A model generated the notes under the pieces. It worked only from the letters and a program-made list of their open reading frames with translations, was not told the DNA's origin and made no database searches. 64,000 nucleotides of DNA from an uncultured Thermoleophilia bacterium (GTDB lineage: Bacteria; Actinomycetota; Thermoleophilia; UBA2241), in contig CAVXJO010000001.1 in NCBI GenBank assembly GCA_963762125.1, positions 72,610-136,609 of the forward strand. The letters run 5' to 3'. Below, in pieces: positions 20,166 through 48,158 of the stretch; position 1 is the stretch's first letter, and each line of letters starts with the position of its first letter. Made by a program: the position numbers and the translations under genes.

Positions 20166-20236
20166 AGAGTGTGCCGACGCGTCCCGCGTGGTGAACGGGA
20201 TGGCGGCGGCGCATGCTGTGGCCTCGAACACGGGGG

Positions 20237-20275
20237 GCCCGGGCCAGACGAAGTGTCGGCCCGGGCTTTGTCGTC
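20237..20275 (+). terminator. intrinsic terminator / riboswitch expression platform
   Basis: Stem gcccgggcc / ggcccgggc with a 12-nt loop, followed by TTTGTCGTCTTCGT. Lies between the aptamer and the permease start. Confidence 0.5.
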
Positions 20276-20295
20276 TTCGTGACCGGGAGGCAGGC

Positions 20296-21135: not shown

Positions 21136-21140
21136 ACCCC

Positions 21141-23080: not shown

Positions 23081-23114
23081 GTGCGCCTGGGGAGAGAGGC
23101 CGCGCTCGATTGAC

Positions 23115-23295
23115 CCTCGGCTGCGGCGGCTGTAGCCTTGCCGGGCATCTCTCAGCTGCTGGGAAGCCGGTGCAAGGCCGGCGCTGCCCCGCAACTGTAG
23201 GCGCCGACGAACGTCGCACGGAAGCCACTGCCCCGCGGGGTGGGAAGGCGCGGCAAGTAGGACGACGCGCAAGCCAGGAGACCGTGGCCGGGAGA
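23115..23295 (+). ncRNA. cobalamin riboswitch (second copy) preceding cobU
   Basis: CTGGGAAGCCGGTGCAAGGCCGGCGCTGCCCCGCAACTGTAGG then GAAGCCACTG and GGGAAGGCG...AAGCCAGGAGACC. The downstream GAGGGAGGG RBS is likely sequestered by the expression platform. Confidence 0.75.
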
Positions 23296-23328
23296 TCACT
23301 GCGACAACGCCTCGAGGGAGGGCCTGCG

Positions 23329-24075: not shown

Positions 24076-25157
24076 CCGACCTCCTCGACCGCACCCTCGC
24101 CGCCATCGGCCCGCTCGATGCCGACGCCATGCGCGCCGCCGAGGCGCGCCAGCTTCAGCTCACCAAACCACCCAAGGCGCTCGGGCGCCTCGAGACACTG
24201 TCCATCCAGCTCGCCGGCATCCAAGGCCGGGAACAGCCGGTCATCGCGGACAAGGCGATCGCGGTGATGGCGGCCGACCATGGCGTCACCGCGGAGGGCG
24301 TGAGCGCGTTCCCCGCCGAGGTGACGCCGGCGATGGTCTTCAACATGGCCGCCGGCGGCGCCGGCATCAACGTGATCGGCCGCCACGTCGGCGCGCGCGT
24401 CGTCGTCACCGACGTCGGCGTCGACGCCGACCTCAGCGCCGCCGAAGGCGTGCGCCAGAAGAAGATCCGCATGGGCACCGCCAACATGGCCCAGGGTCCG
24501 GCGATGACCCGTGAAGAGGCCGTGCGCGCCGTCGAGATCGGCATCGAACTGGTCGAGGAGGAGCTGGCCAACGGCCTCGACATCATCGCCACGGGCGAGG
24601 TCGGCATCGGCAACACGACGGCCGCGTCGGCCGTCATCGCCGCCCTCACCGGCGAGCCGGCGGCGAGGGTCACCGGCCGGGGCACGGGGATCACCAAGGA
24701 CGCGCTCGCCGGCAAAGTGGCGGTGATCGAGAAGGCGCTGGCGGTCAACTCGCCCGACGCCGCCGACCCGATCGACGTGCTCGCCAAAGTCGGCGGTCTC
24801 GACATCGCCGCCATGACCGGCGTGTTCCTCGGCGGCGCGGCGCACCGCATCCCGGTCGTCATGGACGGGTTCATCAGCGCCGCCGCGGCGCTCGCCGCCG
24901 TGCGCCTCTGCCACGAGTGCGTGGACTACATCCTGCCCAGCCACGTGAGCATCGAGGTCGGCCACCAGGTCGTGCTCGAGGAGCTCGACCTGGTGCCGCT
25001 CTTCGACCTCCAGATGCGCCTCGGCGAGGGCACCGGCGCGGCTCTCTCGATGAGCATCATCGAAGCCTCCGCGCGCGTCCTCAGCGAGATGGCGACCTTC
25101 GAGAGCGCCGGCGTCGCCGGGGACCCCAGTGAGGCCGATTCCGAGCTGACGCGATAA
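24072..25157 (+). CDS. cobT: nicotinate-nucleotide--dimethylbenzimidazole phosphoribosyltransferase
   Basis: Characteristic CobT sequence (LTKPPKALGRLE..., ADHGV, GEVGIGNTT, MDGFISAAAAL). Start codon overlaps the cobU stop. Confidence 0.85.
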   Translation: MTDLLDRTLAAIGPLDADAMRAAEARQLQLTKPPKALGRLETLSIQLAGIQGREQPVIADKAIAVMAADHGVTAEGVSAFPAEVTPAMVFNMAAGGAGINVIGRHVGARVVVTDVGVDADLSAAEGVRQKKIRMGTANMAQGPAMTREEAVRAVEIGIELVEEELANGLDIIATGEVGIGNTTAASAVIAALTGEPAARVTGRGTGITKDALAGKVAVIEKALAVNSPDAADPIDVLAKVGGLDIAAMTGVFLGGAAHRIPVVMDGFISAAAALAAVRLCHECVDYILPSHVSIEVGHQVVLEELDLVPLFDLQMRLGEGTGAALSMSIIEASARVLSEMATFESAGVAGDPSEADSELTR

Positions 25158-25206
25158 GGTCGGCGGCGACTCGAGAACGCAAGCTGGCTCAGGACTTCAC
25201 GAGACG

Positions 25207-26067
25207 ATGACGGACACCGACCAGACACAGGTGCAGGGACCAGACGCGACCCCGCCGCGGGACGGCTCGACCGGCGCCGGCTCCATCGGCCGCCGCCTGA
25301 CGCTCGCCGTGACGTTCCTGACCGGCGTCCCGCTCGAGGTGGAGGGCGATGTGAGCCCCAGCGACCTGTGGGGGAGCATGGGCTGGTACCCGCTCGTCGG
25401 GCTGGCCATGGGCGTCGTCGCGTGGGCGGTCTACGCGGGGCTGATCTGGTTCCTCCCGGGCTTGGTCGCGGCGACGCTGGTCGTCATCCTGCTCGAGTTG
25501 CTCACGCGGGGCTTGCATCTCGATGGCCTGATGGACACGGCCGACGGGATCCTGAGCGGCGCGCCGCGCGAGCGGGCGCTCGAGATCATGAAGGACCACA
25601 ACGTCGGCGCGATGGGCGTCGCGGCGGCGGTCCTTGTCCTGGTGCTCAAGATCGCGGCCCTGGGTGCGCTCGCGCGTGCAGACGCGGCCGCTCCGCTGCT
25701 CGCCGGCTGGTGCGCGGCGCGCACGCTTCCGGCGCTCAACGTCTACTGGTGGCCGTACGCCCGCCCGGTCGGGACCGGAGAGGCGTTCACCCGCGAGCAC
25801 ACTCCGGGGCCTCTGCAGCTGGCCGGCGGCCTGCTGCTGGCCGGCGTCGTCATCGCCGGCCTCGCCGGCCTCTGGATCGGCGCCGCCGGCTCGTGGTACG
25901 CCGGCCTCCTGACCGCCGTGGTCGCGATGGCTGTGGCGCTGGGCGTGCAGGCTGTCGTGGCGAAGCGCCTCGGCGGCCTCACCGGGGACGTCTACGGTAT
26001 GGGCATCGAGCTTGCCGAAGCGGCAGCGCTGGTCGTCGGCTGCGCGATCGTGGGGCTGGCGACGTGA
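25207..26067 (+). CDS. cobS: adenosylcobinamide-GDP ribazoletransferase (cobalamin 5'-phosphate synthase)
   Basis: Multi-TM protein with the DGLMDTADG motif. Confidence 0.85.
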   Translation: MTDTDQTQVQGPDATPPRDGSTGAGSIGRRLTLAVTFLTGVPLEVEGDVSPSDLWGSMGWYPLVGLAMGVVAWAVYAGLIWFLPGLVAATLVVILLELLTRGLHLDGLMDTADGILSGAPRERALEIMKDHNVGAMGVAAAVLVLVLKIAALGALARADAAAPLLAGWCAARTLPALNVYWWPYARPVGTGEAFTREHTPGPLQLAGGLLLAGVVIAGLAGLWIGAAGSWYAGLLTAVVAMAVALGVQAVVAKRLGGLTGDVYGMGIELAEAAALVVGCAIVGLAT

Positions 26068-26948
26068 AGCTATACCTCGTCCGTCACGGCCAGTCTACGG
26101 GTAACATCGGCGGCACGCTGATGGGGCAGAGCGACCATCCGCTGACGCCGCTCGGTGAGAGACAGGCGCGGGCCGCGGCCGGACGCCTGGCGCCGTTCGG
26201 GCCCATGCCCGTGTACTCCAGCGACTTGCCGCGGGCCCGGGCGACGGCAGAGTACGTCGTCGGCGCCTGGACGGCGGCGGGCGGCGTGGTGGCGGCCGCC
26301 GGCAGGCCTGCCCGTCTGACGCTGGATCCGCGCCTTCGCGAGATCGCCCTGGGTGACTACGAAGGCCGCCCCTGGCAGGAGTTCGAGGCAGACACCGCGC
26401 TGACGGCTGCGTTCGCCGAAGATCCGTACCGTACCGCGCTACCGAACGGCGAGTCGCTGGAGCATCTGGAGGCCCGGGTCCATGCTGCCGTCCTCGATAT
26501 CCTCGTGCCGTTCGGCGTCGACGACACGGGCGCGTACTGCGGCAACGCGGTGAGCCAGGGCGACGCCAGCGCCGGCGATCGCAATGGCTCGGACGTCGCT
26601 GCCATGAAGGCCGGGGCGGCGGCGGCCGCCGTTGACGGCGCGGCGACCGCTGGGGCAGGCGAGACAGGCCTGCCGGAGACCATGGACGCGAGCGTCGTCG
26701 CCACAGGTCTCGTGCCGGTGGAGGACGGCGGGTGCGCTTGTCTGGTCGCTCACGACGGCCCCATCCGGGCGATCCTCAACCACTATCTGGGCGTGCCGCC
26801 GGAGAAGTGGTGGACCCTGTCCACCACCCACGGCGGCGTTTCCCTGCTCGAGTTCGCCGGCGGCTGCGTCACGGTCCGCTTCGTGAATGGGACGGGTCAT
26901 CTCGCCGGGCTCGAGCCGGACAAGTACGTGCCGTCCGACGACGACTGA
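26064..26948 (+). CDS. cobC: histidine phosphatase family protein, probable alpha-ribazole phosphatase (CobC) with ~90-aa low-complexity insertion
   Basis: LYLVRHGQS (RHG catalytic motif) ... LAHDGPIRAIL (second His). GTGA overlap with cobS. An Ala/Gly/Asp-rich insert sits between the two conserved halves. Confidence 0.65.
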   Translation: MKLYLVRHGQSTGNIGGTLMGQSDHPLTPLGERQARAAAGRLAPFGPMPVYSSDLPRARATAEYVVGAWTAAGGVVAAAGRPARLTLDPRLREIALGDYEGRPWQEFEADTALTAAFAEDPYRTALPNGESLEHLEARVHAAVLDILVPFGVDDTGAYCGNAVSQGDASAGDRNGSDVAAMKAGAAAAAVDGAATAGAGETGLPETMDASVVATGLVPVEDGGCACLVAHDGPIRAILNHYLGVPPEKWWTLSTTHGGVSLLEFAGGCVTVRFVNGTGHLAGLEPDKYVPSDDD

Positions 26949-26971
26949 CCGGCGTTCCGCCCGCCCCCCTC

Positions 26972-27922
26972 GTGATCTTCGTCCCTCATGACTGGCGTCT
27001 CGCACTGGCCACGGTGCTGCTCGCGGGATTGATCGACGTGACGCTGGGCGAGCCACCGAACGCGCTGCATCCCGTCGTGTGGATGGGCCGGCTGATCGGC
27101 GCGCTGGAGCGGCGCCGGCCGCGGGGCCGACCCGGCGCCGAGTTCGCCTACGGTGTCCTCATCGTGGTCGTGACGGCTGGAGCGGCGTTCGCCGCTGGCC
27201 TGCTGCTCACCCTCGTGCTGGACCGCCTGCCCTTGTGGGGCGCGCTGCTCATCGGCGCCTGCGCGCTCAAGACGACCTTCTCGCTGCGGGGGCTGGTGCG
27301 CGCCGGCCGCGACGTCCAGCGCGCGCTGGCCTCCGACACCGCCGCGGCGCGCGCCTCTCTCGCTGCCCTGGTCAGTCGCTCGCCGGACCTCGATCCGCCG
27401 CTCATCGTCTCGGCGACCATCGAATCGCTGGCCGAGAACCTCACGGACAGCGTCGTCTCGCCGCTGCTCGCCTACGCCCTCTTCGGGCTGCCCGGCGCCT
27501 TGGCCTACAGGGCCGTCAACACGATGGACGCGATGCTGGGCTACCGCGACGAGCGCGAGTACGTGGGCAAGGCTGCGGCGCGCAGCGACGACGCGGCGAA
27601 CTGGCTGCCGACGCGCATCACCGGCCTGCTGCTCGTAGCCGTCTCGGCGCTCAAGGGGACCGCCGGCCGCGCCTGGTGGGCGTTCCGCACGCAGCACCAG
27701 CCCGAGTACGGGCCCAACAAGACCCTGGCCATCGCTACCATGGCCGGCAGCCTGGGTGTGCAGCTGCAGAAGCCCGGGGCGTACGCGCTGGGAACGGCGG
27801 ACCGTGCGCTGACGAGCCAGGTCATCGACGACGCCGTGTGGCGCGTGTGGGCGGCCGGCGGCGCGACGGTCGCGCTGGCCGCCGGCCTCGCCGCTCTGCT
27901 GACCTGGGCGGTGTGGGGATGA
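26972..27922 (+). CDS. cbiB: adenosylcobinamide-phosphate synthase (CbiB/CobD membrane protein)
   Basis: TM protein with HPVVWMGRLIGALE near the N-terminus and the conserved ESLAENLTDSVVSPL region. Confidence 0.8.
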   Translation: MIFVPHDWRLALATVLLAGLIDVTLGEPPNALHPVVWMGRLIGALERRRPRGRPGAEFAYGVLIVVVTAGAAFAAGLLLTLVLDRLPLWGALLIGACALKTTFSLRGLVRAGRDVQRALASDTAAARASLAALVSRSPDLDPPLIVSATIESLAENLTDSVVSPLLAYALFGLPGALAYRAVNTMDAMLGYRDEREYVGKAAARSDDAANWLPTRITGLLLVAVSALKGTAGRAWWAFRTQHQPEYGPNKTLAIATMAGSLGVQLQKPGAYALGTADRALTSQVIDDAVWRVWAAGGATVALAAGLAALLTWAVWG

Positions 27923-29078
27923 CCGCGGGATCGCCGCACGGCGCCGCGCCGGCGGCGGAGTCACCTGCGCCGGCACGCCTGCGCCGGGTCGCGGCGTCCG
28001 TGCACGGCGCGGTCGACCCTTCGGCGCTGCGCGCCGAAGGCATCGATCCGGCCGACCATCGTCGACTTCAGCTCCAACCAGTCGCCGCTCGGAGCGGCGC
28101 CGGCGGTCGCCGCCGCCGTCGCCGGCGCGGTCGTCGACGCGTACCCGGACCCGCGTCGCGGCGGAGCTCACCGCGGCGCTTGCTCTTCGCCATGGCGTGA
28201 CGCCGGCGCACGTGGTGTGCGGCAACGGCAGCACCGAGCTCATCCGGCTGCTGGCTCAGCTGGCGCTACGGCCGGGCGACGTCGCCCTGGCGCTCGCGCC
28301 CGTCTTCGGCGAGTGTGAAGTAGCGACCGCTCTCGCTCGAGCGCGCCTCGAGCGCGTCCCGCTCGCGTACGAAGAGGATGAGGCGGGCTTCTTCTGCGAC
28401 GAGCCCGCCCTCCGCGAGGCGCTCCGCCAGCAGAGCCCCCGGCTCTGCTGGCTCTGCTCGCCGAACAACCCGACCGGGGCGGCGCTGCCCGCGGCGCTGG
28501 CCGCCGCCCTCGCCGCCGACCACCCGGCCACGCTCTTCGTCCTCGACGAGGCCTACTGCGACCTGCTGCCGGACCCACAGTGGAATCGGGCGCAGCTGCC
28601 GCCCGACCTCATCGTCCTACGCTCGATGACCAAGTACTGGGGTCTCGCCGGTCTGCGTCTCGGCTATGCCATCGCCGACCCCGCCGCGGCCGCGGCGCTA
28701 CGCGCCGCGACCCCTCCGTGGAACGTCAATGCCTGTGCTCAGGCGGCCGGCCTGGCGGCGCTCGCCGATGGCCAGCACCATGACCGGGCGGTCGCGCTGC
28801 TCGTCGCCGAGCGCGACCGCCTCGTCGTCGGCCTGTGCTCGCTCGGCTGGATCAGCGAGCCGACCAGCGCCGGCTTCTTCCTCATCCGCGCCGGCGACGC
28901 CGGGGCCGTCCGCGGCGCACTGCTCGCCCGCGGCTGCCTCGTGCGCGACTGCACCTCTTTCGGCCTGCCCTCCCACGTCCGCGTCAGCCCGCGTCACCCC
29001 GGCCAGAACGACTTGCTCCTCGAGGCGTTCTCGTCGCTCGCGCCGCCCCCCGCGGCGGCTGCCGAGGCCCCGCGATGA
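27919..29078 (+). pseudogene. cobD: L-threonine-O-3-phosphate decarboxylase (CobD, class I/II aminotransferase fold) interrupted by two closely spaced +1 frameshifts
   Basis: Three frame segments: MTAGSPHG...LRAEGIDPAD (frame A, from the ATGA overlap with cbiB); IVDFSSNQSPLGAAPAVAAAVAGAVVDAYPDPR (frame B); AELTAALALRHGVTPAHVVCGNGSTELI...SMTKYWGLAGLRLGY (frame C, ORF 28197..29078, contains the PLP-Lys region). Each junction is repaired by deleting a single C, at ~28055 and ~28135. Confidence 0.65.
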
Positions 29079-30619
29079 CCGTCGCTCGCGGCCGCGTCAT
29101 CATGCTGCAGGGCACGGCCTCGCATGCCGGCAAGACCGTGCTGGCCGCGGCGCTGTGCCGCATCTACGCGCGCCGCGGCCTGCGCGTGGCGCCGTTCAAG
29201 GCGCAGAACCTGGCGCTCAACTCGTACGTGACGGAGGACGGCGGCGAGATGGGGCGCGCCCAGGTGTATCAGGCGCGCGCGGCCGGCCTCGAGCCGCAGG
29301 TGGACATGAACCCGGTGCTGCTCAAGCCCAGCTCCGACGCGACCAGCCAGGTCGTCGTCATGGGCAGGCCGGTCGGGCACATGACGGTGCCCGAGTATCA
29401 GGCCTATCAGGCGGAAGTCTGGCCCACCGTCACGGCAGCCTTCGAACGCCTGCGGACGTCACGCGACCTCATCGTCCTCGAGGGCGCCGGCAGCTCGGCG
29501 GAGGTGAACCTCCGGGGGCGGGACATCGTCAACATGCGCATGGCGCTGCACGCCCGATCACCGGTCCTTCTGGTCGGGGACATCGACCGCGGAGGTGTCT
29601 TCGCCAGCCTCCTCGGCCATGTGGAGCTGTTCACGCCCGAGGAGCGCGGGCTGGTGGCGGGGTTCGTCATCAACAAGATGCGCGGCGATGCGAGCCAGCT
29701 GGACTCCGGCATCGAGATCCTCGCCGAGCGCACCGGGGTCCCGACGCTCGGCGTCGTGCCCATGCTCGAGGGATGGAGCGGCGACGAAGAGGACTCGGTC
29801 GCGCTCGACGGCTGGCAGCGCCGGGAGAAGCAGGACGCGCCGCTGCGGATCGCCGTCGTCCGCCTGCCGTACCTCAGCAACTCGACCGACACGGACGCGC
29901 TGGCCGCGGAGCCGGATGTGGACGTGCGCTTCGTGAGCTCGCCCGACGAGCTCGCGGGGGCTGCGGCGATCGTGGTGCCCGGCACCAAGAGCACGATCGC
30001 CGACCTCGCCTGGCTGCGGCAACGCGGCCTTGACGACGCGGTGAAGGCGGCGGCCGCGGCCGGGACGCCGGTCGTCGGCATCTGCGGCGGCTACCAGATG
30101 CTCGGCCGCCGCATCGTCGATCCCGGGCACATCGAGTCCGCCGCCCTCGCCGTCGACGGCCTCGGCCTGCTCGACGTGGAGACGACCTTCGCCGCAGGCA
30201 AGCGGACGGTCCGCACCGAGGGTGAGCTGATCGGCCGGGACGCCGGACCGCTCGCCCCCGGCGCGCGCGTCTCCAGCGGCGGCCTTCTCGGCTCGCCCGG
30301 GACGCAGGTGCGCGGCTACGAGATCCACATGGGACGCACCGAGCTCGGGCCCGGCGCCGCGCCGCTGCTGCGACTGCACGGCGCCGGTGAGAGCGAGCAC
30401 CTCGACGGCGCCGTCGCCGGCGCCGTCTGTGGCACCTACGTGCACGGGCTCTTCGACCATGCGGATCTGCGCACCGCGTTCCTGAACGGCTTGCGCGCGG
30501 CGCGCGGCCTGGCTCCCCGCCCGGCCTCGGTCCCGCAGGGCGACGACATCGACCGCCTCGCAGACCACGTCGAGGCGCACCTCGACACAGCCGCGCTCGA
30601 CGCCGTCATCTGGGCCTGA
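29075..30619 (+). CDS. cobQ: cobyric acid synthase
   Basis: N-terminal CobQ/DTB-synthetase-like ATPase (IMLQGTASHAGKT) and C-terminal GATase1 domain (GICGGYQMLG, HGLF). ATGA overlap with cobD. Confidence 0.9.
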   Translation: MTVARGRVIMLQGTASHAGKTVLAAALCRIYARRGLRVAPFKAQNLALNSYVTEDGGEMGRAQVYQARAAGLEPQVDMNPVLLKPSSDATSQVVVMGRPVGHMTVPEYQAYQAEVWPTVTAAFERLRTSRDLIVLEGAGSSAEVNLRGRDIVNMRMALHARSPVLLVGDIDRGGVFASLLGHVELFTPEERGLVAGFVINKMRGDASQLDSGIEILAERTGVPTLGVVPMLEGWSGDEEDSVALDGWQRREKQDAPLRIAVVRLPYLSNSTDTDALAAEPDVDVRFVSSPDELAGAAAIVVPGTKSTIADLAWLRQRGLDDAVKAAAAAGTPVVGICGGYQMLGRRIVDPGHIESAALAVDGLGLLDVETTFAAGKRTVRTEGELIGRDAGPLAPGARVSSGGLLGSPGTQVRGYEIHMGRTELGPGAAPLLRLHGAGESEHLDGAVAGAVCGTYVHGLFDHADLRTAFLNGLRAARGLAPRPASVPQGDDIDRLADHVEAHLDTAALDAVIWA

Positions 30620-31913: not shown

Positions 31914-32113
31914 CGGGCTGCCGGCCGGCGCCTGCCGCGGTTCGCGGAACGCTACCTCGGGGACCATGCCGGTGACAGCTCATGTTGCGACGATCTGGAG
32001 GTCCCCATGCCCCCCTTGGATGACGAACTGGGCGCCCGGGCGACCACGGCCCGCGCGGAGCCGGGGCGCCTGACTGAGTACGGCCACTTCAGCTCGCCTT
32101 GGGCGGTGACGGC

Positions 32114-32734
32114 ATGAAGCTGACCGTCACCACATTCGTGAGCCTGGACGGCGTGATGCAGGGTCCGGGCGGCCCGGACGAGGACCGCAGCGGCGGCTTC
32201 GACCGCGGCGGCTGGCTCGTGCCCTTCGCCGACGCCGACATGGGGGACGCGGTCACGCGCTGGTTCTCCGCCGCCGACGCGTTCTTGCTGGGGCGGCGCA
32301 CCTACGAGATCTTCGCCGCCTACTGGCCGCTGGTCACCGACCCGCAGGATCCGGTGGCCTCGCGTCTCAACGGCCTTCCCAAGTACGTGGCGACGAAGAC
32401 GCTGCGGAAGGCTGACTGGGACGGCACGACCTTGCTCAGCGGCGACGTCGTGGAGGAGGTGCGGCGTCTCAAGGAGCAGCCCGGCCGGGAACTTCAGGTC
32501 CACGGCAGCGGCGACCTGCTGCAGACGCTGATGGCGCACGACCTGATCGACGAGCACCGTCTGTTCGTGTACCCGGTGCTCGTCGGCGCCGGCAGACGCC
32601 TCTTCCGCGACGGTTCCGCCGCCAAGACGTTCGAGCTGACGGAATCCCGGATGACGCCGGCCGGCGTCGCGATCCTCGCCTACGCGCCGGCCGGGCCGCT
32701 CGTGGCCGGCAGCTTCGAGCTGCCGGCGCCCTGA
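32114..32734 (+). CDS. dihydrofolate reductase family protein (RibD C-terminal domain)
   Basis: MKLTVTTFVSLDGVMQGPGGP...LLGRRTYE...LQVHGSGDLLQTL pattern of the RibD_C/DHFR-like family. Confidence 0.75.
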   Translation: MKLTVTTFVSLDGVMQGPGGPDEDRSGGFDRGGWLVPFADADMGDAVTRWFSAADAFLLGRRTYEIFAAYWPLVTDPQDPVASRLNGLPKYVATKTLRKADWDGTTLLSGDVVEEVRRLKEQPGRELQVHGSGDLLQTLMAHDLIDEHRLFVYPVLVGAGRRLFRDGSAAKTFELTESRMTPAGVAILAYAPAGPLVAGSFELPAP

Positions 32735-39264: not shown

Positions 39265-40371
39265 ATGGACCTCAGAGTCTTCAGCATCGGTGCCGCCGAC
39301 TCGCTGGTCCCCGTCGTCGCTGTCCTCGCCACCGTCGCGGCCGCCTGGCTGCTCTACCGGTACCGCCGGCGCATGGTGGAGATGCGCCCGCCCGGGGCGC
39401 CGCGGACCGTGAGCGTGGATCCGCAGCCGTTCGAGTACGTCCAGCTCAGGGAAGTAGTCATGGTCGCGGCGCTGGCGCTGGCGGTGTACGTGCTGATCCC
39501 GCAGCTCGCCGACGTGACCGGAGTGTGGTCGAGCATCAAGCACGCCGACTGGGCGTGGGCGCTGTGGGCGGTGGGCGCGTCGGCGCTCACCTTCGTGGCC
39601 GCCGCGATCGGCCTGATGGGGGCCGTCCCTCAACGCCTTCCTCTCCCTCTGACGACGGCCGCCCAGCTGGCCGGTGCCTTCGTCAACCGCATCGTCCCCG
39701 CCCGCATGGGCGGCATGGCGACCAACCTGCGCTACCTGCAGAAGCGGGGCGTGGGCCTCGCCGTCGCGACTGCGAGCATCGGCGTGCAGCAGGTGTCGGG
39801 GCTCCTCGTGCACGTCGCCCTCTCGGCTGTCCTTCTGGTCTGGGCCGGACGCAACGCCGGGGACGCACTGCAGGCGCTTCCCTCCGAACAGACCGTGCTG
39901 ATCGGGCTCACCGTCCTCGGCGTCTTCTCAGGCCTGCTCTTCCTGCTGCCGTGGGGCCGGCGTCTCCTGCGCACGCGCGTCCTGCCGCCGCTGCAGCGAT
40001 CTGGCAGCGGCGTCGCCGCCATCGCGCGCAGCCCGCTCAAGCTGCTGGAGTTGTTCGGGGGCGCGGTGTTCCTCACGCTCATGAACATCGCTGCGCTCGT
40101 CTTCTCGGTGTACGCGTTCGGAACGACCGACGTGAGCGTGGCCGTGATCGGCGTCGCCTTTCTCGTGGGCTCCGGCGTTGCGTCGGTCGCCCCGACGCCG
40201 GGCAATCTCGGCGCCGTCGAGGCGGCGCTCATCGCCGGCCTGACCACCGTGGGCGTGGACCCCGACGTCGCCGTTCCTGCGGTCTTCCTCTTCCGCATCG
40301 TCACCTTCTGGCTGCCGATCCTGCCGGGCTGGCTGACGCTCGTCCTTCTGCAGCGCCGGGGTGACCTCTGA
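39265..40371 (+). CDS. lysylphosphatidylglycerol-synthase-like transmembrane domain protein (UPF0104 / flippase-like family)
   Basis: 8 or more TM helices. ARMGGMATNLRYL and a C-terminal PGNLGAVEAAL motif, typical of the MprF-TM-like / TIGR00374 family. Confidence 0.6.
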   Translation: MDLRVFSIGAADSLVPVVAVLATVAAAWLLYRYRRRMVEMRPPGAPRTVSVDPQPFEYVQLREVVMVAALALAVYVLIPQLADVTGVWSSIKHADWAWALWAVGASALTFVAAAIGLMGAVPQRLPLPLTTAAQLAGAFVNRIVPARMGGMATNLRYLQKRGVGLAVATASIGVQQVSGLLVHVALSAVLLVWAGRNAGDALQALPSEQTVLIGLTVLGVFSGLLFLLPWGRRLLRTRVLPPLQRSGSGVAAIARSPLKLLELFGGAVFLTLMNIAALVFSVYAFGTTDVSVAVIGVAFLVGSGVASVAPTPGNLGAVEAALIAGLTTVGVDPDVAVPAVFLFRIVTFWLPILPGWLTLVLLQRRGDL

Positions 40372-40399
40372 CTCGGGCGCTCGCCGGCAAAGCCTGAAC

Positions 40400-40956
40400 A
40401 CAGGCCGGCCGTGACCTACCCCGCCCGACCTGTCGCGCAGGTAGCGACTCTTCGTGAGCTCCGGCGACAGCGCCTCCGTGCCCACGTGGCGGAACGCCAG
40501 CGGGCGCTTCATCCTGCCGAACAAGGGCACGCCGTCCCCCAACAGGATCGGGACTCTGGTGATGATGAGCTCGTCGATCAGGTCCGAGTCCAGGAAGCTC
40601 TGGATGGTGCGGCCACCGTCCACGTAGAGGTTCAGGTAGCCGCGCCTCCGGAGTGCGGAGACGATGCTCTGCGGGTCGCCGCTCACGATCTCCGCCTTGT
40701 CCGCCACCGCCGCGGGCACCGCCTCCAGGCTCGTGCTCAGCACGAACACCGGTTTGCCGTATGGCCACTCGCCGAACGCCAGCACCGTCTCGAAGGTCCT
40801 CCGGCCCATCACGATCGCATCGACGCCGGAGAGGAACTCGGCGAAGCCGTAGTCGCTGCCTTCGGGGTTGGGCTGCTCGGTCAGCCACTCGAGGTCTCCG
40901 GCACGGTCCGCGATGAGACCATCCAGGCTCGTCGCCACATAGACGTAGTTGGGCAT
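40400..40956 (-). CDS. dihydrofolate reductase family protein (RibD C-terminal domain), C-terminal boundary uncertain
   Basis: MPNYVYVATSLDGLIADRAGDLEWL...VMGRRTFE...LYVDGGRTIQSFL. The ORF stays open to 39928, running antisense into the convergent gene, so the real stop or a frameshift is near 40400-40430. Confidence 0.6.
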
Positions 40957-41122: not shown

Positions 41123-41153
41123 TTCTCAACACTGTTGAGAACAGTTCTCAACT
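41123..41153. promoter_or_regulatory. perfect 9-1-9 inverted repeat TTCTCAACA-C-TGTTGAGAA plus a third half-site (GTTCTCAAC), candidate Fur-family operator
   Basis: Lies 20-50 nt upstream of the Fur-family gene start. The palindrome is perfect, and a direct repeat of the half-site follows 4 nt later. Confidence 0.5.
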
Positions 41154-41171: not shown

Positions 41172-41624
41172 GTGACCGACCCGCAGCCGGCGCACGACAT
41201 CGAGGCCGTCTTCCATCAGAAGGGCATCCCGTTCACCCGGCAGCGCCGGCTGATCTGGGACTTCTTCGCCGGCGCCGACCGCGCCACCACCATCACGGAG
41301 GCGGCGGACGCTCTGCGCAGCGAGGGCGTCGGTCAGGCCACCGTGTACCGCACCGTGCAGCTTCTGAGCGACCTTGGTCTGCTCGCGCGGGTGCAGGATG
41401 GACGCGGCGAGATCTGCTTCATCGCGCCGCCGATCGGACACAGTCACCCGCTCATCTGCGGCGTCTGCCGCAAGGTGGTCCGCTTCGACGGCGATGGTGA
41501 CGTCGCGGATCTCGAGGCGCGGCTCGCCGAGGCCACGGGCTTCACGATCTACGGCCACCACCTCGAGGTGTACGGCATCTGCCCCTCCTGTCGCGCCGCG
41601 AAGGAGGGCGACCATGGCGAGTGA
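41172..41624 (+). CDS. Fur family transcriptional regulator (Fur/Zur/PerR-like)
   Basis: N-terminal winged helix (RLIWDFF..., ATVYRTVQLLSDLGLL). Metal-binding HSHPLICGVC and C-terminal CPSC (CxxC...CxxC structural Zn site). Confidence 0.85.
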   Translation: MTDPQPAHDIEAVFHQKGIPFTRQRRLIWDFFAGADRATTITEAADALRSEGVGQATVYRTVQLLSDLGLLARVQDGRGEICFIAPPIGHSHPLICGVCRKVVRFDGDGDVADLEARLAEATGFTIYGHHLEVYGICPSCRAAKEGDHGE

Positions 41625-42396
41625 CGCGCCGCGGACCAGCGTTCCGTCCGCCAACGGCAGGTACGCCGGCGCGTCGCTCGCCGCTCGATCCGACCAGGAG
41701 ACCGATGTGGATCAGGAACTGATCGCCGGCGCGAGCGGCGACGAACTCGCCGGCCGCCGCTTCTTCTGCTCGTGGAGCGGCGGCAAGGACGCCTATCTTG
41801 CGCTCCAGCGCGCCACACTGCGCCGCGGCGAGCCGGCCGCCCTCGTGTGCATGCTGCACGAGGACGGCCGCGTGAGTCGCGGCCACGGCCTGCCGCTCGC
41901 GCTGCTCGAGGAGCAGGCCGCCGCACTCGGCATACCGCTCATCGCGCGGGCCACCACGTGGGACGACTACGAGGCGACCTACGTCTCGCTCCTGCACGGA
42001 CTGCGCGCAGAGGGTGTGGAGGCCGGCGTGTTCGGCGACATCGATCTCCAGGCGCATCGCGACTGGGTCGAGGGCGTCTGCGAGGTCGCCGGGCTCGGCT
42101 GCCACCTGCCGCTGTGGCAGGAGCCGCGGCGCCGGCTGCTGGACGAGTTCCTCGCCGGCGGCTCACGTGCCACCATCGTCGCCGTCGACTCGTCCAGGCT
42201 CGGCGCCGAGTTCCTCGGCCTCGAACTGGACGACGCCGTCATCGCCCGCCTCGAGGCCGCCGGCGTGGACGCCTGTGGTGAGGAGGGTGAGTACCACACC
42301 ATGGTCACCCAGGCCCCGCTGTTCTCGCGTCCGGTCCCACTCGCATGGGATGGGACCGAGGAGCGCGAGGGTCACTACGTTCTCAGCTATGTCTAG
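41614..42396 (+). CDS. Dph6-related PP-loop ATP pyrophosphatase (MJ0570-like ATP-binding domain protein)
   Basis: PP-loop FFCSWSGGKDAYLAL, then the conserved GDIDLQAHRDWVE and EYHT motifs of the diphthine-ammonia-ligase-like family. ATG overlaps the end of the Fur-family gene. Confidence 0.7.
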   Translation: MASDAPRTSVPSANGRYAGASLAARSDQETDVDQELIAGASGDELAGRRFFCSWSGGKDAYLALQRATLRRGEPAALVCMLHEDGRVSRGHGLPLALLEEQAAALGIPLIARATTWDDYEATYVSLLHGLRAEGVEAGVFGDIDLQAHRDWVEGVCEVAGLGCHLPLWQEPRRRLLDEFLAGGSRATIVAVDSSRLGAEFLGLELDDAVIARLEAAGVDACGEEGEYHTMVTQAPLFSRPVPLAWDGTEEREGHYVLSYV

Positions 42397-42424
42397 CAAA
42401 GTCACGAAGGGAGTCACCACCGCC

Positions 42425-43384
42425 ATGACTACTACTCGTACCGGCCGCCTCACCGCGGCGCTCCTCCTCGTCGCCGTGCTCGCCATCGGCGTCGTCGCCT
42501 TGAGCGCCTGCGGCTCGGGCTCCGACACCGCCGCCTCGAGTTCGCCGTCCGCCGCCGCGGCCGGCCCGATCACGGTCACCGACGACTCCGGCGCCGAGGT
42601 CACGCTCGACAAGGCCGCCGAGCGCATCGTCAGCCTCGCGCCCGCCGATACCGAGATCGCTTACGCCATCGGCGCCGGCGACAAGATGGTCGCCGGCACC
42701 AGCTACGACGACTATCCGGAAGAGGCGAAGGCGCTCCCCAAGATCGGCGACTTCAACAACCCGAACATCGAGAAGACCGCTTCGTTCTCGCCAGACCTCG
42801 TCCTGGCGGCCGGCGGCCTTCAGGCCAAGCTGCAGAGCAAGCTCGAGGCCCTCGGCATGACGGTCTATGTGGTCGACCCCAAGACCTACGACGACGTCAT
42901 CAACACCATCGAGAACATCGGCAAGCTCACGGGCTCCGAGGAGGGCGCGGCGACGGTCGTAGCCACGATGACCGCCGCCCGGCAGGAGGTCCAGGCCGCT
43001 GTGGGCGACCTGCCCAAGACCACGACCTTCCTCGAGATCTACAGCAAGCCGCTGATGACCGCCGGCTCGGATACGTTCATCGACGACATGATCACCACCG
43101 CCGGCGGCGAGAACATCGGCGCCCAAGCCGGCAGCGGCTTCCCGACCTTCAGCACTGAGGTGCTGGTCAAGGACGACCCGCAGGTCTACATCGCCGACTC
43201 CGGCTCCATGAGCAAGCCCGGCGACATCAACGCCCGCGCTGGCTTCTCCGACCTCACCGCGGTCAAGGACGGCCACGTCTACGTGATCGAGGACAGCACG
43301 ATCGCACGACCTGGCCCGCGGCTCGCCGAGGGCCTCAAGGCGCTGGCCGGCATGATCCATCCGGAGGCGTCGAGCGCGCAGTGA
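42425..43384 (+). CDS. ABC transporter substrate-binding lipoprotein, TroA/BtuF-like (siderophore/heme/B12 class, cluster A-2)
   Basis: Lipobox LSACGSG. RIVSLAPADTEIAYAIGAGDKMVAGTS is typical of the Peripla_BP_2 family. AAGGGA RBS. Confidence 0.8.
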   Translation: MTTTRTGRLTAALLLVAVLAIGVVALSACGSGSDTAASSSPSAAAAGPITVTDDSGAEVTLDKAAERIVSLAPADTEIAYAIGAGDKMVAGTSYDDYPEEAKALPKIGDFNNPNIEKTASFSPDLVLAAGGLQAKLQSKLEALGMTVYVVDPKTYDDVINTIENIGKLTGSEEGAATVVATMTAARQEVQAAVGDLPKTTTFLEIYSKPLMTAGSDTFIDDMITTAGGENIGAQAGSGFPTFSTEVLVKDDPQVYIADSGSMSKPGDINARAGFSDLTAVKDGHVYVIEDSTIARPGPRLAEGLKALAGMIHPEASSAQ

Positions 43385-44379
43385 GCAAGCTCGCCCGCAC
43401 AGGCGTGTGGCCGGGGATCCTCCTGGCCGCCGGCATCCTCGCCGTCTGCCTCGTGCTGGCGCTCGCCCTGGGACCGGCCTCGCTGTCGGTGGGACGGATA
43501 TGGCACCTGCTCTTCGCGGGGCCGGTCCGGGGCGACCTCGACAACGCCATCTTCTGGCAGATCCGCATGCCGCGCGTCCTCACCGCCGCCCTCGTCGGTG
43601 CGGCGCTGGCCGTGGCCGGCGTGATCCTCCAGGACCTTTTCCTCAACCCGCTGACCGATCCGTACGTGACGGGCGTCTCGTCCGGCGCCGCGCTCGGCGC
43701 CACCATCGGCATCGTGCTGCACTTCGGCAACCTGCCCTGGATGACCGTGCTCGCCATCGTCGGTGGCCTCGGCACGCTGGTCATAGTGTGGATGGCGGCG
43801 CGCCGCCGCGGCCGCATCGACGTCTTCGTGCTCCTGCTCGCCGGCGTCACCATCTCCTACCTGGCCAGCGCCCTCGTCACCGTCCTCATGATCAAGGCGA
43901 ACCAGGACATGACGGCGATCATCTACTGGCTCATGGGCAGCTTCTCCGGGCGGGGTTGGCCGGACGTGCGCATCGCGCTGGTCACGATCCCGTTCATGAT
44001 CCTGCCGCTGTTCTTCGGCCGCGAGATGGACATCCTTCTGCAGGGTGAGAAGCGGGCGCTCGAGCTCGGCGTGGAAGTCGAGCGCACCAAGCGGATGCTG
44101 TTGGTGACGGCCGGGGTGCTCACCGCGCTGGCCGTCTCGGTGAGCGGCATCATCGGCTTCGTCGGCCTGGTGGTGCCCCACATCGTGCGGCTGCTGGTCG
44201 GGCCGGGACACCGTGGGCTGCTCCCGGTCTCGCTGCTGGTCGGCTCCTCGATGATGGTGATCGCCGACCTCCTGAGCCGCACGGTGATCTCGCCCAACGA
44301 GATCCCCGTCGGCGTGGTCACCACGTTCGTCGGCGCTCCCCTGTTCGTGTACCTGCTGCGGCACGGGAGACGGGCGTGA
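43381..44379 (+). CDS. FecCD family ABC transporter permease (iron-siderophore/heme/B12 type)
   Basis: FecCD signature (ALALGPASLSVGRIWHLL, RMPRVLTAALVGAALAVAGVILQ, GVSSGAALGA). ~10 TM segments. Confidence 0.9.
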   Translation: MSKLARTGVWPGILLAAGILAVCLVLALALGPASLSVGRIWHLLFAGPVRGDLDNAIFWQIRMPRVLTAALVGAALAVAGVILQDLFLNPLTDPYVTGVSSGAALGATIGIVLHFGNLPWMTVLAIVGGLGTLVIVWMAARRRGRIDVFVLLLAGVTISYLASALVTVLMIKANQDMTAIIYWLMGSFSGRGWPDVRIALVTIPFMILPLFFGREMDILLQGEKRALELGVEVERTKRMLLVTAGVLTALAVSVSGIIGFVGLVVPHIVRLLVGPGHRGLLPVSLLVGSSMMVIADLLSRTVISPNEIPVGVVTTFVGAPLFVYLLRHGRRA

Positions 44380-45719
44380 CGGCCGCGCCACGCTCCCACC
44401 CTGGAGCTCCGGAGGCTGCCGCTCCACTCGTGGCCCTCAAGGACGTCGACTTCGCCTACGACGAGCGACCGGTGCTGCGGCGCATCGGCTTCACGCTCGA
44501 GTCCGGAGACTTCGTCGGCATCGTCGGTCCCAACGGGAGCGGCAAGTCGACGCTGGTCGATCTCATCGACGGCATTCACCAACCGGCCGCCGGCGAGGTG
44601 CTCATCAAGGGGCTGCCGACCGGGTCGTACAAGCGCAAGGCCATGGCCCGCGAGGTCGCGCTCGTGCCGCAGCATTTCGACCTCGACTTCGACCTCGCCG
44701 TCCGCGAGGTCGTGGAGATGGGCGGCTACTGCCGCGCCAAAGACCCGGCGGCGAGCGGCGACCCCGAGCTGACGCTGGCCCGCCTCGGGGTCGCCCACCT
44801 CGTGAACCGCCGCTTCTCGGAGCTATCCGGCGGCGAGAAGCAGCTCGTGGTGCTCGCTCAGGCGCTGATGCAGCGGGCGCCCCTGCTGCTGCTCGACGAG
44901 CCGGCCTCCGCGCTCGACGTGTCGCATCAGCTGCGGCTCTTCGACTTGCTCAGGGAGCTCAACGCCGACGGACTGACGGTGCTCTGCATCCTGCACGATC
45001 TCAACCTGGCGCTGCACTACTTCGACAAGCTGCTGGTGCTCAGCGACGGCGAGGTCGCGGCGTTCGGGCCGCCCGACGACGTGCTGCGGCCCGAGGTGGT
45101 CGAGGCCGTGTACGGCGTGCGCGCCTACCTGCATCGGCACGCCGGACGCACCTACCTGACATTCTCGCCGCGGTTGCGCGGCGAGCGCCGCGGGCGCGTG
45201 CATCTCATCTGCGGCGGGGGCACCGGCGCGGGGATGATGCGCGAGCTGGCGGACGCCGGGTACGAAGTCACCGCCGGCGTCCTCAACGCGCTTGACACCG
45301 ACGAGGAGACCGGGCGCGAGCTCGGCCTCGAGATGGCCGTGGAGGCGCCCTTCTCGCCGGTCGGCGACGAGGCGCACGCGGAGAACCTGGAACTGCTGCG
45401 CGCCGCCGACCTCGTCGTCGTGAGCGCCATCCCGGTTAGCCACGGCAACGCGCGCAACATCGCCGCCGCCCGTGAGGCGCTGGCCGCCGGCATTCCCGTG
45501 TGGGCCGACGATGGCGTGCGCGCCAATGACTTCGCCGGCGCGGTCGACGAGCTGGCGGCGGCGGGCGCGCAATTCTTCGCCGGCGAGGAGGCGCTGCTCA
45601 CGGCTGTGCGGGGCCGCAGCCTCTCCGGCTCCGGATCGGCGTCCGCGGTGGAGACCGCCTCCACGCGAGTCGCGGCTCCGCCGGAAGACGACTCGCCGGC
45701 CTCGGGGCCGGCGACGTAA
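44376..45719 (+). CDS. ABC transporter ATP-binding protein (FepC/BtuD-like) fused to a C-terminal ~190-aa CoA-binding-like Rossmann domain
   Basis: Walker A GPNGSGKST, signature LSGGEKQ, Walker B LLLDEPASALD, H-loop ILHDL. After ~aa 260 comes VHLICGGGTGAGMM...GYEVTAGVLN...DLVVVSAIP...GIPVWADDG, resembling the PF13380/PF02629-type CoA-binding fold. Confidence 0.8.
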   Translation: MTAAPRSHPGAPEAAAPLVALKDVDFAYDERPVLRRIGFTLESGDFVGIVGPNGSGKSTLVDLIDGIHQPAAGEVLIKGLPTGSYKRKAMAREVALVPQHFDLDFDLAVREVVEMGGYCRAKDPAASGDPELTLARLGVAHLVNRRFSELSGGEKQLVVLAQALMQRAPLLLLDEPASALDVSHQLRLFDLLRELNADGLTVLCILHDLNLALHYFDKLLVLSDGEVAAFGPPDDVLRPEVVEAVYGVRAYLHRHAGRTYLTFSPRLRGERRGRVHLICGGGTGAGMMRELADAGYEVTAGVLNALDTDEETGRELGLEMAVEAPFSPVGDEAHAENLELLRAADLVVVSAIPVSHGNARNIAAAREALAAGIPVWADDGVRANDFAGAVDELAAAGAQFFAGEEALLTAVRGRSLSGSGSASAVETASTRVAAPPEDDSPASGPAT

Positions 45720-45848: not shown

Positions 45849-46298
45849 CTAGCCGAGCCGCTCCCTGAGCTCGGCTGCGTACGCGCGGTCCTGCTGCGCG
45901 CTCTTGGCGAACAGGCGCGCCTGCAGTTCGAGCGCGTCCGCGCACTGCATCGCGAACTCCTCGTGGTAGCGCGCGGCGTCTTCCTCGGCCTGGATGAGCT
46001 GCTCGACGGCGGCGGGCCAGCTCGTCTCCGGTTCGGCGTCGAGCACCCCCAGGTAGGGGCCGCCCTTGAGCGAGCCGGCCGGGGCCGACGCTCTGGTGTC
46101 TGCCCCTGTCTGTTGCATCATCAGCTTCTGTACGCGGTCGTCGTGTGTGCAGACGACCTCTTCGAGCTTGTCCTGCCACTCCTGGTCCGGCGCCACGATA
46201 CCGGCTGCGGCCGCGAAGTCGGCGCACGCCTGTTCTGCTTCGAGCGCGAAGCGGAGGGCGGATCCGTAGGCTGTGATCTCGGGGAACTCGTGGGCCAC
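45849..46298 (-). CDS. hypothetical protein
   Basis: 149-aa acidic ORF with no recognisable motif. Convergent with the ABC operon. Confidence 0.35.
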   Translation of the reverse strand: MAHEFPEITAYGSALRFALEAEQACADFAAAAGIVAPDQEWQDKLEEVVCTHDDRVQKLMMQQTGADTRASAPAGSLKGGPYLGVLDAEPETSWPAAVEQLIQAEEDAARYHEEFAMQCADALELQARLFAKSAQQDRAYAAELRERLG

Positions 46299-46510: not shown

Positions 46511-48050
46511 TCACCACTGCTTGTTGACGGTACCCTCCCAGGTGCCGACCTTCTTCTCCTTCTTCTCCACTTCGGTGAACCAGCGCGAGGTGACGCACTT
46601 GCTCTCGGTGAAGAAGCGGATCCCGTCGAGGCCGAAGACGTGGCTCTCGCCGAAGAACGAGTCCTTGTGGCCGGCGAAGGGGAAGAAGCTGACCGGTACC
46701 GGGATGCCGACGTTGATGCCGACCATGCCGGCGTGCGTGCGCCTGGCGAACTCACGCGAGAAGTAGCCGCTCTCGGTGAAGATGCAGGAGCCGTTGGCGA
46801 AGCGGCTGTCGTTCATGATGGTGAGGCCCTCTTCGAAGTCCTCGACGCGCTTGATGGCGAGAACCGGCCCGAAGATCTCCTCGCGGCCGATCTCCATGTC
46901 CTCGGTCACGTTGTCGAAGATCGTGGGACCGACGAAGAAACCGTTCTCGTAGCCCGGCACGACCAGGTCGCGGCCGTCGAGGATGAGGTCGGCGCCTTCC
47001 TCGACGCCCTTGTCGATCCACTTCTTGACGGAGGCCTGGTGCTCGGCGGATGACGACCGGGCCGAGCTCGGTCTTGGGGTCGTAGGAGCAGCCGACGACG
47101 CGCTGCTTGGCGGACTCCATCATGTAGCCGATGAACTCGTCGGCGATCGCGTTCTCGACGACGATCACGGGCAGCGCCATGCAGCGCATGCCGGCGCAGC
47201 CGAAGGTCGAGTTGATGATGCCGGCGGCGGCGCGCTCGAGCGAGGCGTCGGCGAGCACGAGGCCGTGGTTCTTGGCCTCGGTCTGGGCCTGGACGCGCTT
47301 GCCGTGGGCGGCCGCGAGCGAGTAGACGTGCTTGCCGACGCTGGTCGAGCCGACGAAGCTGACGCCGCGCACCAGGGGGTGGGTCATCATGATCTCGGCC
47401 TCGACGCGCGAGCAGGTCACGACGTTGACGACGCCCTTGGGCAGGCCGGCCTCGTAGAGCAGTTCGAGCAGTCGCATGCCGGTGGTCGGGACCATGCTGG
47501 CCAGCTTCAGGACCAGGGTGTTGCCGGTGACGATGCAGAGCGGCAGCATCCAGCCGAAGGGGATCATGCCGGGGAAGTTGAAGGGCGCGATGCCGGCGAA
47601 CACGCCGATCGGCTCGCGGTAGCTCACGGTGTCGTGCCCGGTGGACACGTTCATGAGCGACTCGCCCTTCATGGTCATCGGCGCGGAGACGCCGACCTCG
47701 CAACCCTCGATGATCTTGATGACCTCGCCGCGCGCCTCGTCGAGGTTCTTGCCGAGTTCGCGTGAGCAGAGGTAGGTGATCTCCTCGGCGTGCTCCTCGA
47801 GCAGGGCCTTCCAGCGATAGAGCACCTGGGTGCGCCTCTGGACCGGCGTGGTCGACCAGGTCTGAAACGCCTTGTGGGCGCTCTCGATGGCGCCCTCGAC
47901 CTCGGCGGCCGTGCAGCACGGCGCCTTGGCGAACACCTCGCCGGTGCTCGAGTCGGTCACGTCCATGTACGTGTCGGTGGTCGACTCGCGCCACTCGCCG
48001 TCGACGCAGTACTTCAGCATCTGGACATCGGTCTTCTCGGCTGTCGCCAT
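46511..48050 (-). pseudogene. mmsA: methylmalonate-semialdehyde dehydrogenase (CoA-acylating) MmsA, aldehyde dehydrogenase family, with -1 frameshift near 47048
   Basis: N-part ORF 46752..48065: GAPFNFPGMIPFGWM and catalytic-Cys region FGCAGMRCMA. C-part ORF 46511..46960: EEIFGPVL, MVGINVGIPVP. Inserting one base at ~47048 restores GPVVI-SAEHQASVKKWID. GAGAGGA RBS before MATAE. Confidence 0.75.
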
Positions 48051-48158
48051 TCTGGGTCCTCTCATCGCGATCGCGGGGCTGCCAAGGGTTGATTGGTGCG
48101 GCTGGAAGGAGTCTAATCAATCAAGTGATTAACTTCAACTACCACGAGGGAAGCCGCT

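Follow-up and report, generated by a model that had tools for sequence, protein, structure and literature searches.

The window considered here is a 64,000-nt stretch of DNA from an uncultured Thermoleophilia bacterium (contig CAVXJO010000001.1, positions 72,610 to 136,609 of the forward strand), and the coordinates given below are those of the window. At positions 44376-45719 it carries a gene that encodes, in a single polypeptide, an ATP-binding cassette (ABC) ATPase of the BtuD type and an additional C-terminal domain with a Rossmann-like fold. The gene is composed of the following elements.

44376..45719 (+): complete gene of 447 aa, in which a BtuD-type ATPase is fused to an MJ0874-family domain
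44424..45116 (+): nucleotide-binding domain (NBD), residues 17-247, from Pfam ABC_tran and Foldseek, with the complete catalytic motif set
45117..45194 (+): β-hairpin and variable linker, residues 248-273 (AlphaFold strands 248-255 and 258-267)
45195..45614 (+): Rossmann-like domain, residues 274-413, from AlphaFold, placed by annotated homologues in the MJ0874 family (PF27219)
45210..45233 (+): C279-G286 (CGGGTGAG), the Gly-rich loop that joins strand 1 to helix A, from conservation in 73 sequences
45438-45440, 45534-45536 and 45540-45542: residues 355, 387 and 389, which deviate from the family consensus
45615..45716 (+): low-complexity, non-conserved C-terminal tail, residues 414-447, from the predicted local distance difference test (pLDDT) and conservation

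The GTG start codon of the gene overlaps the TGA stop of the FecCD permease gene upstream (as GTGA), and a single uninterrupted open reading frame (ORF) of 447 aa follows. The proportion of G and C at third codon positions (GC3) holds at 0.87-1.00 across the junction between the NBD and the C-terminal domain (C-domain), both alternative frames contain stops, and of 79 related loci 77 have an ORF that is unbroken through the two domains, while the other two have frameshifts within the NBD. The fusion ORF of one related locus (L076) is likewise continuous at 434 aa, and the public protein that represents the 90% cluster of the window protein (P0221) has 447 aa and is 93% identical to it over 444 residues. 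A first-pass annotation of this DNA, made from its letters without database searches, had proposed one gene for the ATPase and the extra domain and had considered that a frameshift might hide a separate gene; the steady GC3, the stops in the other frames and the continuity of the related ORFs rule out the latter, and the proposal of one gene stands.

The N-terminal part is a complete NBD of the FepC/BtuD class, as the same annotation had recognized. It spans residues ~17-258, with a Pfam ABC_tran match on residues 34-177 (E 1.6e-30), and residues ~19-258 are matched by NCBIfam models for heme, FecE, FhuC and BtuD ATPases. The catalytic motifs comprise Walker A (G51-T59), Q99, the LSGGE signature (150-154), a Walker B/D-loop segment (170-181, with LLLDEP at 171-176 and D181) and the H-switch residue H207, and these positions are invariant or almost so in 73 homologues. 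Foldseek places HmuV (4g1u), MolC (2nq2), BhuV (5b58) and BtuD (2qi9, 4dbl and 4fi3) at the top of the NBD matches, with TMt values of 0.84-0.90. The Escherichia coli BtuCD-F (2qi9, 4dbl, 4fi3), HmuUV and BhuUV systems have in common with the window system the NBD fold and motifs, a FecCD permease and a Peripla_BP_2 protein; however, the solved ATPases BtuD, HmuV and BhuV end at ~250 residues, whereas the window ATPase has an appended domain. Since full-length Foldseek alignments all stop at ~255 columns, there is no solved ABC ATPase with an add-on of the MJ0874 type. The full-length AlphaFold model has a pLDDT of 91.5 and a predicted template modelling score (pTM) of 0.78; in the linker the pLDDT is ~74 and the mean top-residue frequency 0.34, and in the tail the pLDDT is below 50 over residues 420-447 and the mean top-residue frequency 0.11.

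The C-domain gave no match in the Pfam copy searched, which holds no PF27219 model, and PDB sequences returned noise only. NCBIfam model NF007082 ('corrinoid ABC transporter ATPase', 402 positions), by contrast with these, covers both domains, aligning residues 17-393 with its positions 2-394 (E 6.1e-81), and it matches the C-terminal part by itself at positions 267-395 (E 3.2e-13). Because the score of 272.6 bits lies below the curated cut-off of 537 bits, the fused ATPase is to be regarded as a homologue of the NF007082 proteins rather than as an equivalog. PF27219 ('MJ0874') is carried as a precomputed annotation by homologous fragments that are 55-93% identical to the window domain, and P0221 is annotated with ABC_tran and PF27219:MJ0874. 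By way of this 93%-identical proxy the C-domain appears to belong to PF27219, from which it shows no family-level difference, although it departs from the consensus at S355, A387 and A389. The two-domain layout is also that of the haloarchaeal BtuD (NF007082/PRK09536), and cobalamin uptake by the Halobacterium BtuFCD system has been demonstrated genetically according to the citation of that work in a later paper (Woodson et al., 2005, as cited in PMC1447603). Unlike haloarchaeal BtuD, the window protein comes from a bacterial host (Thermoleophilia), ends in a 45-residue disordered tail and is encoded in an operon that is headed by a Fur-family gene and includes DUF71. The architecture is already catalogued, in NF007082 and more recently in Pfam PF27219, and is functionally uncharacterized; no paper on PF27219 or MJ0874, and none on a C-terminal domain of BtuD, was found in the literature.

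The AlphaFold model of residues 257-405 (43 diverse sequences; pLDDT 94.1, pTM 0.86) consists of six β-α units and a final helix, in a domain of ~130-140 aa. This agrees with the Rossmann domain and the Gly-rich loop that had been described from the sequence; the loop follows strand 1, and the motifs quoted for the domain, ICGGGTGAGMM and GIPVWADDG, are in place at residues 278-288 and 372-380. Foldseek comparison of the C-domain with the PDB yielded DprA, PGK, KARI, the N-domains of formyltransferases, assorted NAD(P) domains and TrkA, which are generic Rossmann-like matches (E ~1e-3, TMq <=0.58), so that the C-domain has no close solved relative. The best match in a profile search of PDB sequences was the NADPH-binding domain of KARI (E 0.01), over strand 1, the loop, helix A and strand 2, and the sub-threshold Pfam matches obtained in 43 family members (F420_oxidored in four, ThiF in two, and others) are, apart from one SLOG family, to NAD(P)-type Rossmann domains.

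These searches also bear on the earlier suggestion that the C-domain resembles YccU (CoA_binding_2, PF13380) and that transport might respond to coenzyme A (CoA) or acyl-CoA. The two share a broad fold class, Rossmann-like α/β with a Gly-rich loop. However, neither CoA_binding (PF02629) nor CoA_binding_2 matched the window domain at E<=1 or any of the 43 diverse family members at E<=10, no CoA-binding protein was found in the profile search of PDB sequences (E<=10), and the Foldseek comparison of the modelled domain, which had been proposed as a check, placed generic Rossmann folds and no YccU-type structure among its top 50 matches. The YccU/CoA_binding_2 assignment is rejected on these grounds, and control of transport by CoA or acyl-CoA, in a gene context of cobamide salvage and not of CoA metabolism, is very improbable.

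Other domain families were also considered. None of the 43 members matched the cobalamin-binding domain PF02310 at E<=10, and instead of the DxHxxG motif of that family they have CGGG[ST]G in the loop that follows strand 1, with an invariant His within the strand. The folds of Type I regulatory domains do not match either, the C-domain being α/β and MalK, CysA and similar proteins aligning through their NBDs only. For SLOG/DprA, the single weak Pfam match in the 43 members and a top Foldseek match at TMq 0.54 are insufficient for a claim of relationship. TrkA (6v4k_E, TMq 0.41) brings to mind the RCK/KTN (TrkA-type) domains, which are Rossmann domains that gate K+ transporters via NAD(H) or ATP/ADP and are likewise attached to transporters, but there is no sequence-family match and the similarity is no better than that to many Rossmann folds.

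The C-domain is about as conserved as the NBD, with mean top-residue frequencies of 0.53 and 0.54, respectively, and with 15% against 16% of the columns conserved at 90% or more, a level reached by 19 columns of the C-domain. In the 73 sequences G280 is invariant and G281, G282 and G284 are at least 90% conserved; the invariant or near-invariant positions are H276, G280-G284, G301/V302/N304, D307, D309, P325/F326, G355/G357/N358, N361 and D385. The conserved residues are distributed over strand 1, the loop that joins it to helix A, the last part of strand 2 with the loop behind it, and the loops after strands 3-5. Except for H276 in the middle of strand 1, all columns at or above 90% lie in loops or at the ends of strands, along a single edge of the sheet. 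It is at the C-terminal edge of the parallel sheet that Rossmann-type folds bind nucleotide-containing ligands. As deduced from secondary-structure positions in the model, H276, G280-G284, N304, D307, D309, N358, N361 and D385 would form one pocket. The C-domain also contains the succession of strand 1, Gly loop, helix and strand 2 with an acidic residue, and this pattern, together with the weak profile similarity to NAD(P)H domains, points to a ligand of the nucleotide type. The C-domain therefore probably binds a specific small molecule with a nucleotide moiety, for which a cobamide (through its adenosyl group or nucleotide loop), NAD(P)(H) and an adenine nucleotide can be put forward speculatively, and a response of transport to such a ligand by way of the extra domain is plausible. 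The divergences of NBD and C-domain co-vary (Mantel r 0.30, p <=0.001; r 0.42 for the two halves of the NBD as a control), which, though modest, is consistent with co-inheritance of the two domains.

The fusion is not confined to Thermoleophilia. An exhaustive HMMER search with the C-domain alone, made against 1.84 billion cluster representatives (50% identity), detected the domain in 543 clusters at E<=1e-3 and in 292 at E<=1e-10. Among the best 150 of the 543 clusters, 81 are full-length fusions of at least 380 aa, and almost all of these have Walker A near residue 35-55 and the domain at ~260-390, with the GGG[ST]G-type loop mostly retained. In a species scan with one genome per species, for which a subset of eight aligned sequences served as the query, at least 560 species genomes or loci were found to encode the domain, the closest among the matches listed being 99% identical and from a metagenome-assembled genome of Thermoleophilia. 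The hosts include Thermoleophilia, other Actinomycetota, Geothermincolia, Acidimicrobium, Aerophobetes, many Bathyarchaeia, Methanosarcinales and Hydrothermarchaeaceae, and named fragments of the domain also derive from ANME-1, Thermoplasmatota and Firmicutes. Given the numbers of clusters and of species genomes, and their spread over bacteria and archaea, the fusion is a widespread and old architecture and not an oddity; the first-pass annotation, which had called such fusions unusual and had proposed a survey of their distribution, is contradicted on this point. No standalone domain was confirmed among the 160-240-aa matches checked, the short matches either starting within ~45 bases of a contig end or representing internal-start calls of the fused gene, and a search of a plasmid collection with the domain gave no match. 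From the name of the Pfam family, MJ0874 of M. jannaschii may be such a standalone form. In one protein (P0142, 690 aa) a xylose-isomerase-like TIM barrel (AP_endonuc_2) is fused C-terminal to the NBD and MJ0874 domain, and at another locus (L082, 560-1357) an AP_endonuc_2 protein is encoded directly after the domain-bearing ATPase gene; the family may have another functional partner in proteins of this kind.

In the window the fused gene stands last in an operon of the order fur-DUF71(B12 type)-btuF-btuC-btuD, the five genes of which overlap or abut. The features upstream of btuD are these.

41123..41141 (+): perfect 9-1-9 palindrome, TTCTCAACA-C-TGTTGAGAA, 19 bp, ~30 bp upstream of the fur-family gene
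41172..41624 (+): Fur-family regulator, first gene of the operon (Pfam FUR, E 8.7e-14)
41614..42396 (+): DUF71/COG2102 PP-loop ATPase (PF01902) of the B12-salvage subgroup (Pfam Diphthami_syn_2, E 3.5e-36)
42389..43384 (+): BtuF-like substrate-binding lipoprotein (Pfam Peripla_BP_2, E 4.5e-34)
43381..44379 (+): BtuC-like FecCD permease, membrane subunit of a Type II importer (Pfam FecCD, E 5.5e-92)

The end of fur and the start of the DUF71 gene overlap by 11 nt, and the BtuF-like protein, which starts at an ATG at 42389 or 42425, has a signal peptide with an LSAC lipobox. In NCBIfam this protein is matched by TIGR04281 (a generic PGF-CTERM binding protein; E 5.6e-51) and then by the BtuF model NF002894 (E 2.7e-34), with the heme protein IsdE weaker (E 5.4e-27), and the top match of the permease is NF007081, 'vitamin B12 ABC transporter permease BtuC' (E 1.1e-84). 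BtuC and the ATPase thus have their best matches among B12 and haloarchaeal Btu-system models, and BtuF its second best, after TIGR04281. The DUF71 protein reads EEGEYH at the position that is diagnostic for its subgroup, where DUF71-B12 proteins have ENGE[F/Y]H and Dph6 has EGG[E/D]xE (de Crecy-Lagard et al., PMC3541065). In that study 75 of 102 DUF71-B12 genes adjoin BtuCDF-type transporter genes (PMC3541065).

The palindrome is unique in the 64-kb window, with none expected by chance, and 14 orthologous loci of Thermoleophilia retain its core ~50 bp ahead of the start of fur. It is a likely candidate for the operator of the fur-led operon. In Thermoleophilia a Fur-family regulator seems to replace the cobalamin riboswitch found in homologous operons of other bacteria.

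Gene neighbourhoods were counted in 80 loci fetched from the 560 or more listed. In nearly all loci whose contig reaches far enough upstream, homologues of btuF and btuC immediately precede the fusion gene. A DUF71 gene is among its neighbours in 56 of the 80 loci, upstream in Thermoleophilia and up- or downstream in Bathyarchaeia, and a Fur-family gene in 32, all of the Thermoleophilia/Actinomycetota type. CobS is a neighbour in 22 loci and CobU/CobT in seven, and altogether 66 of the 80 have at least one cobamide-pathway neighbour. Seven bacterial loci (L037-L042 and L075) have btuF immediately preceded by a cobalamin riboswitch (72-114 bits). One such operon (L038) has the order btuF-cobT-btuC-btuD(+domain)-cobU-cobQ-cbiB-aminotransferase-cobS. 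In all of L037-L042 (e.g., 3225-4289 of L038) cobT is located between btuF and btuC, and cobU comes directly after the ATPase gene, overlapping or abutting it, which interleaves transporter and nucleotide-loop assembly genes to an unusual degree. The riboswitch-type operons carry the domain but have no DUF71.

The window itself holds, upstream of the fur-led operon, a cluster for late assembly and salvage of cobamides (23127-30619, + strand) in which a cobalamin riboswitch (82 bits) is followed by genes for CobU, CobT (DBI_PRT), CobS, CbiB/CobD, a class I/II aminotransferase and CobQ. The true start of the CobU ORF (23077-24075) should be further downstream, because the ORF as called overlaps the riboswitch and its Pfam match begins at residue 98. 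In the region 19995-22211 (+ strand) a second, stronger cobalamin riboswitch (102.6 bits) is followed by genes for an ABC permease (BPD_transp_1) and a binding protein similar to NMT1/THI5, and thus by a B12-regulated transporter of a class seldom tied to cobalamin.

The matches to BtuC, BtuF and NF007082, the linked DUF71-B12 gene, the riboswitches, the interleaved cob genes and the cobamide-pathway neighbours in 66 of 80 loci together assign the window importer to corrinoid uptake for salvage. The earlier description of a siderophore/B12-class importer is borne out for B12 (corrinoid) by the NCBIfam matches, the linkage to cob genes and the riboswitches, and not for siderophores. An importer of iron chelates or heme under Fur control, for which the corrinoid context would be coincidental, could account for the Fur-family gene at the head of the operon and its conserved palindromic operator candidate, for the public name of the protein ('iron complex transport system ATP-binding protein') and for an NBD whose closest structure is HmuV and whose score with the heme ABC ATPase model is 233 bits, at a cut-off of 261. 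As the Thermoleophilia operon is headed by fur and has no riboswitch, a small probability is retained for a metal-chelate substrate. The public label is a generic family name, however, and similarity of the NBD is no guide to substrate. The best permease match is BtuC, BtuF outscores IsdE, and the full-length ATPase, C-domain included, is best matched by the corrinoid model NF007082; seven homologous operons are preceded by cobalamin riboswitches, cob genes are interleaved with transporter genes, and the linkage of DUF71-B12 to such transporters is documented (PMC3541065). An iron or heme importer is for these reasons quite unlikely.

The best explanation, with a probability of roughly 45%, is a BtuD-type corrinoid-importer ATPase that is equipped with a ligand-sensing regulatory C-domain. 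The N-terminal ~250 residues hydrolyse ATP and so drive BtuC, and the conserved β-hairpin leads into the MJ0874-family Rossmann-like domain, which, to judge from comparable C-terminal extensions in ABC ATPases, would be situated on the cytoplasmic side beneath the two ATPase subunits. There the C-domain would take up a cytoplasmic small molecule (a cobamide, NAD(P)(H) or ADP/ATP), and its occupancy would be passed to the NBD dimer; when loaded with ligand it would throttle uptake in the replete cell, a form of control of the trans-inhibition type, which has been verified only for Type I importers so far. The identity of the ligand is speculative, and so is the regulatory output, which is modelled on Type I importers. 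The C-terminal regulatory domains of MetN (C2), ModC and MalK, which give trans-inhibition in Type I importers, are, like the window C-domain, C-terminal to the NBD and cytoplasmic, and the logic in common would presumably be that a ligand-binding add-on controls closure of the ATPase (PMC4245157); they differ in that the window C-domain is Rossmann-like α/β and its importer is of Type II. According to a 2014 review, post-translational regulation had not been verified for any Type II importer, and extensions seen in databases may be regulatory domains (PMC4245157).

Several observations weigh against a regulatory C-domain on a corrinoid importer. The analogy with Type I importers is functional only, since their known regulatory domains have other folds, and the invariant H, D, D, N and N residues would fit a catalytic site as well as a sensor. 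The Thermoleophilia operon has a Fur-family regulator and no riboswitch, and the protein is publicly labelled as part of an iron complex transport system. In addition, at three near-invariant positions of the window protein Gly is replaced by S355, Thr by A387 and Gly by A389, so that the consensus RDFTGG becomes NDFAGA; the same substitutions are present in its Thermoleophilia relatives, and with three near-invariant positions altered the ligand site of this clade may differ from the family norm. Every invariant H/D/D/N/N position is retained in the window protein and in these relatives.

The same invariant residues are the starting point for a role in processing or hand-off, in which the C-domain would receive the corrinoid as it leaves BtuC, hold or modify it (for example by NAD(P)H-dependent reduction or dealkylation) and pass it to DUF71-B12, CobU and CbiB. 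H276, D307, D309, N358 and N361 look catalytic, the Gly-rich loop is of the NAD(P)-binding type, the C-domain is conserved as strongly as the ATPase core, and the gene is deeply set among salvage enzymes; the salvage operons that were inspected contained no gene for a corrinoid adenosyltransferase or reductase. Those enzymes may be encoded elsewhere in the genome, however, and the C-domain has no enzyme-family match above noise and only generic structural neighbours, so that a processing module is unlikely, if still a contender. Replacement of CobC (the α-ribazole-phosphate phosphatase) by the C-domain is unlikely as well, because one locus (L084) has a His_Phos_1 (CobC-type) gene beside the domain.

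A purely structural function would make the C-domain a dimerization brace for the BtuD pair or a docking platform, for DUF71-B12 for example, with no small-molecule ligand involved. C-terminal add-ons of ABC ATPases often dimerize beneath the NBDs (PMC4245157), the pTM of 0.78 indicates that the full-length model places both domains reasonably confidently, and DUF71 co-occurs in the majority of loci (56 of 80). A brace, however, has no need of an invariant Gly-rich loop and of H, D, D, N and N at the ligand edge, and the domain persists in the riboswitch-type operons that lack DUF71; a function of this sort is improbable.

Returning to the ligand-sensing reading, its extension would be that with the MJ0874 domain Type II ABC importers have their first accessory module operated by a ligand, and in the boldest form that this domain binds the incoming corrinoid, or NAD(P)H, where BtuCD opens to the cytoplasm and then either gates the pump (trans-inhibition) or chemically prepares the corrinoid (by reduction or dealkylation) for DUF71-B12/CobU salvage. 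This is possible, though doubtful. If true, a single polypeptide would combine uptake with cofactor processing in Actinomycetota, Bacillota and several archaeal phyla. Post-translational control of Type II importers, which serve B12, heme and siderophores, has been flagged in reviews as an open question (PMC4245157), and the family would offer an experimental handle on ligand gating of these importers or on the coupling of uptake to processing. The public annotation as iron complex transport can be corrected to that of a corrinoid salvage importer, and the importer is tied to the still-uncharacterized DUF71-B12 enzyme.

Three further regions around the operon may be mentioned. Convergent with btuD is a 149-aa ORF (45849-46298, - strand) whose GC3 of 0.88 is typical of coding sequence; it has no match in Pfam or NCBIfam, and many Thermoleophilia loci have a counterpart, 56-97% identical, downstream of their ATPase gene. 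Beyond it, an aldehyde dehydrogenase gene (46511-48065, - strand) is split over two frames, with ORF 46752-48065 corresponding to positions 1-314 of the Aldedh profile and ORF 46511-46960 to positions 343-461. The frameshift near 47040 reflects either a pseudogene or an assembly indel, and in the latter case the source assembly may carry indel errors. Two separate genes with a RibD_C (dihydrofolate-reductase-like) domain are located at 32099-32734 (+ strand) and 39928-40956 (- strand), one of them divergent from the fur-led operon; the 342-aa ORF of the second is probably over-extended, since its Pfam match spans residues 7-167.

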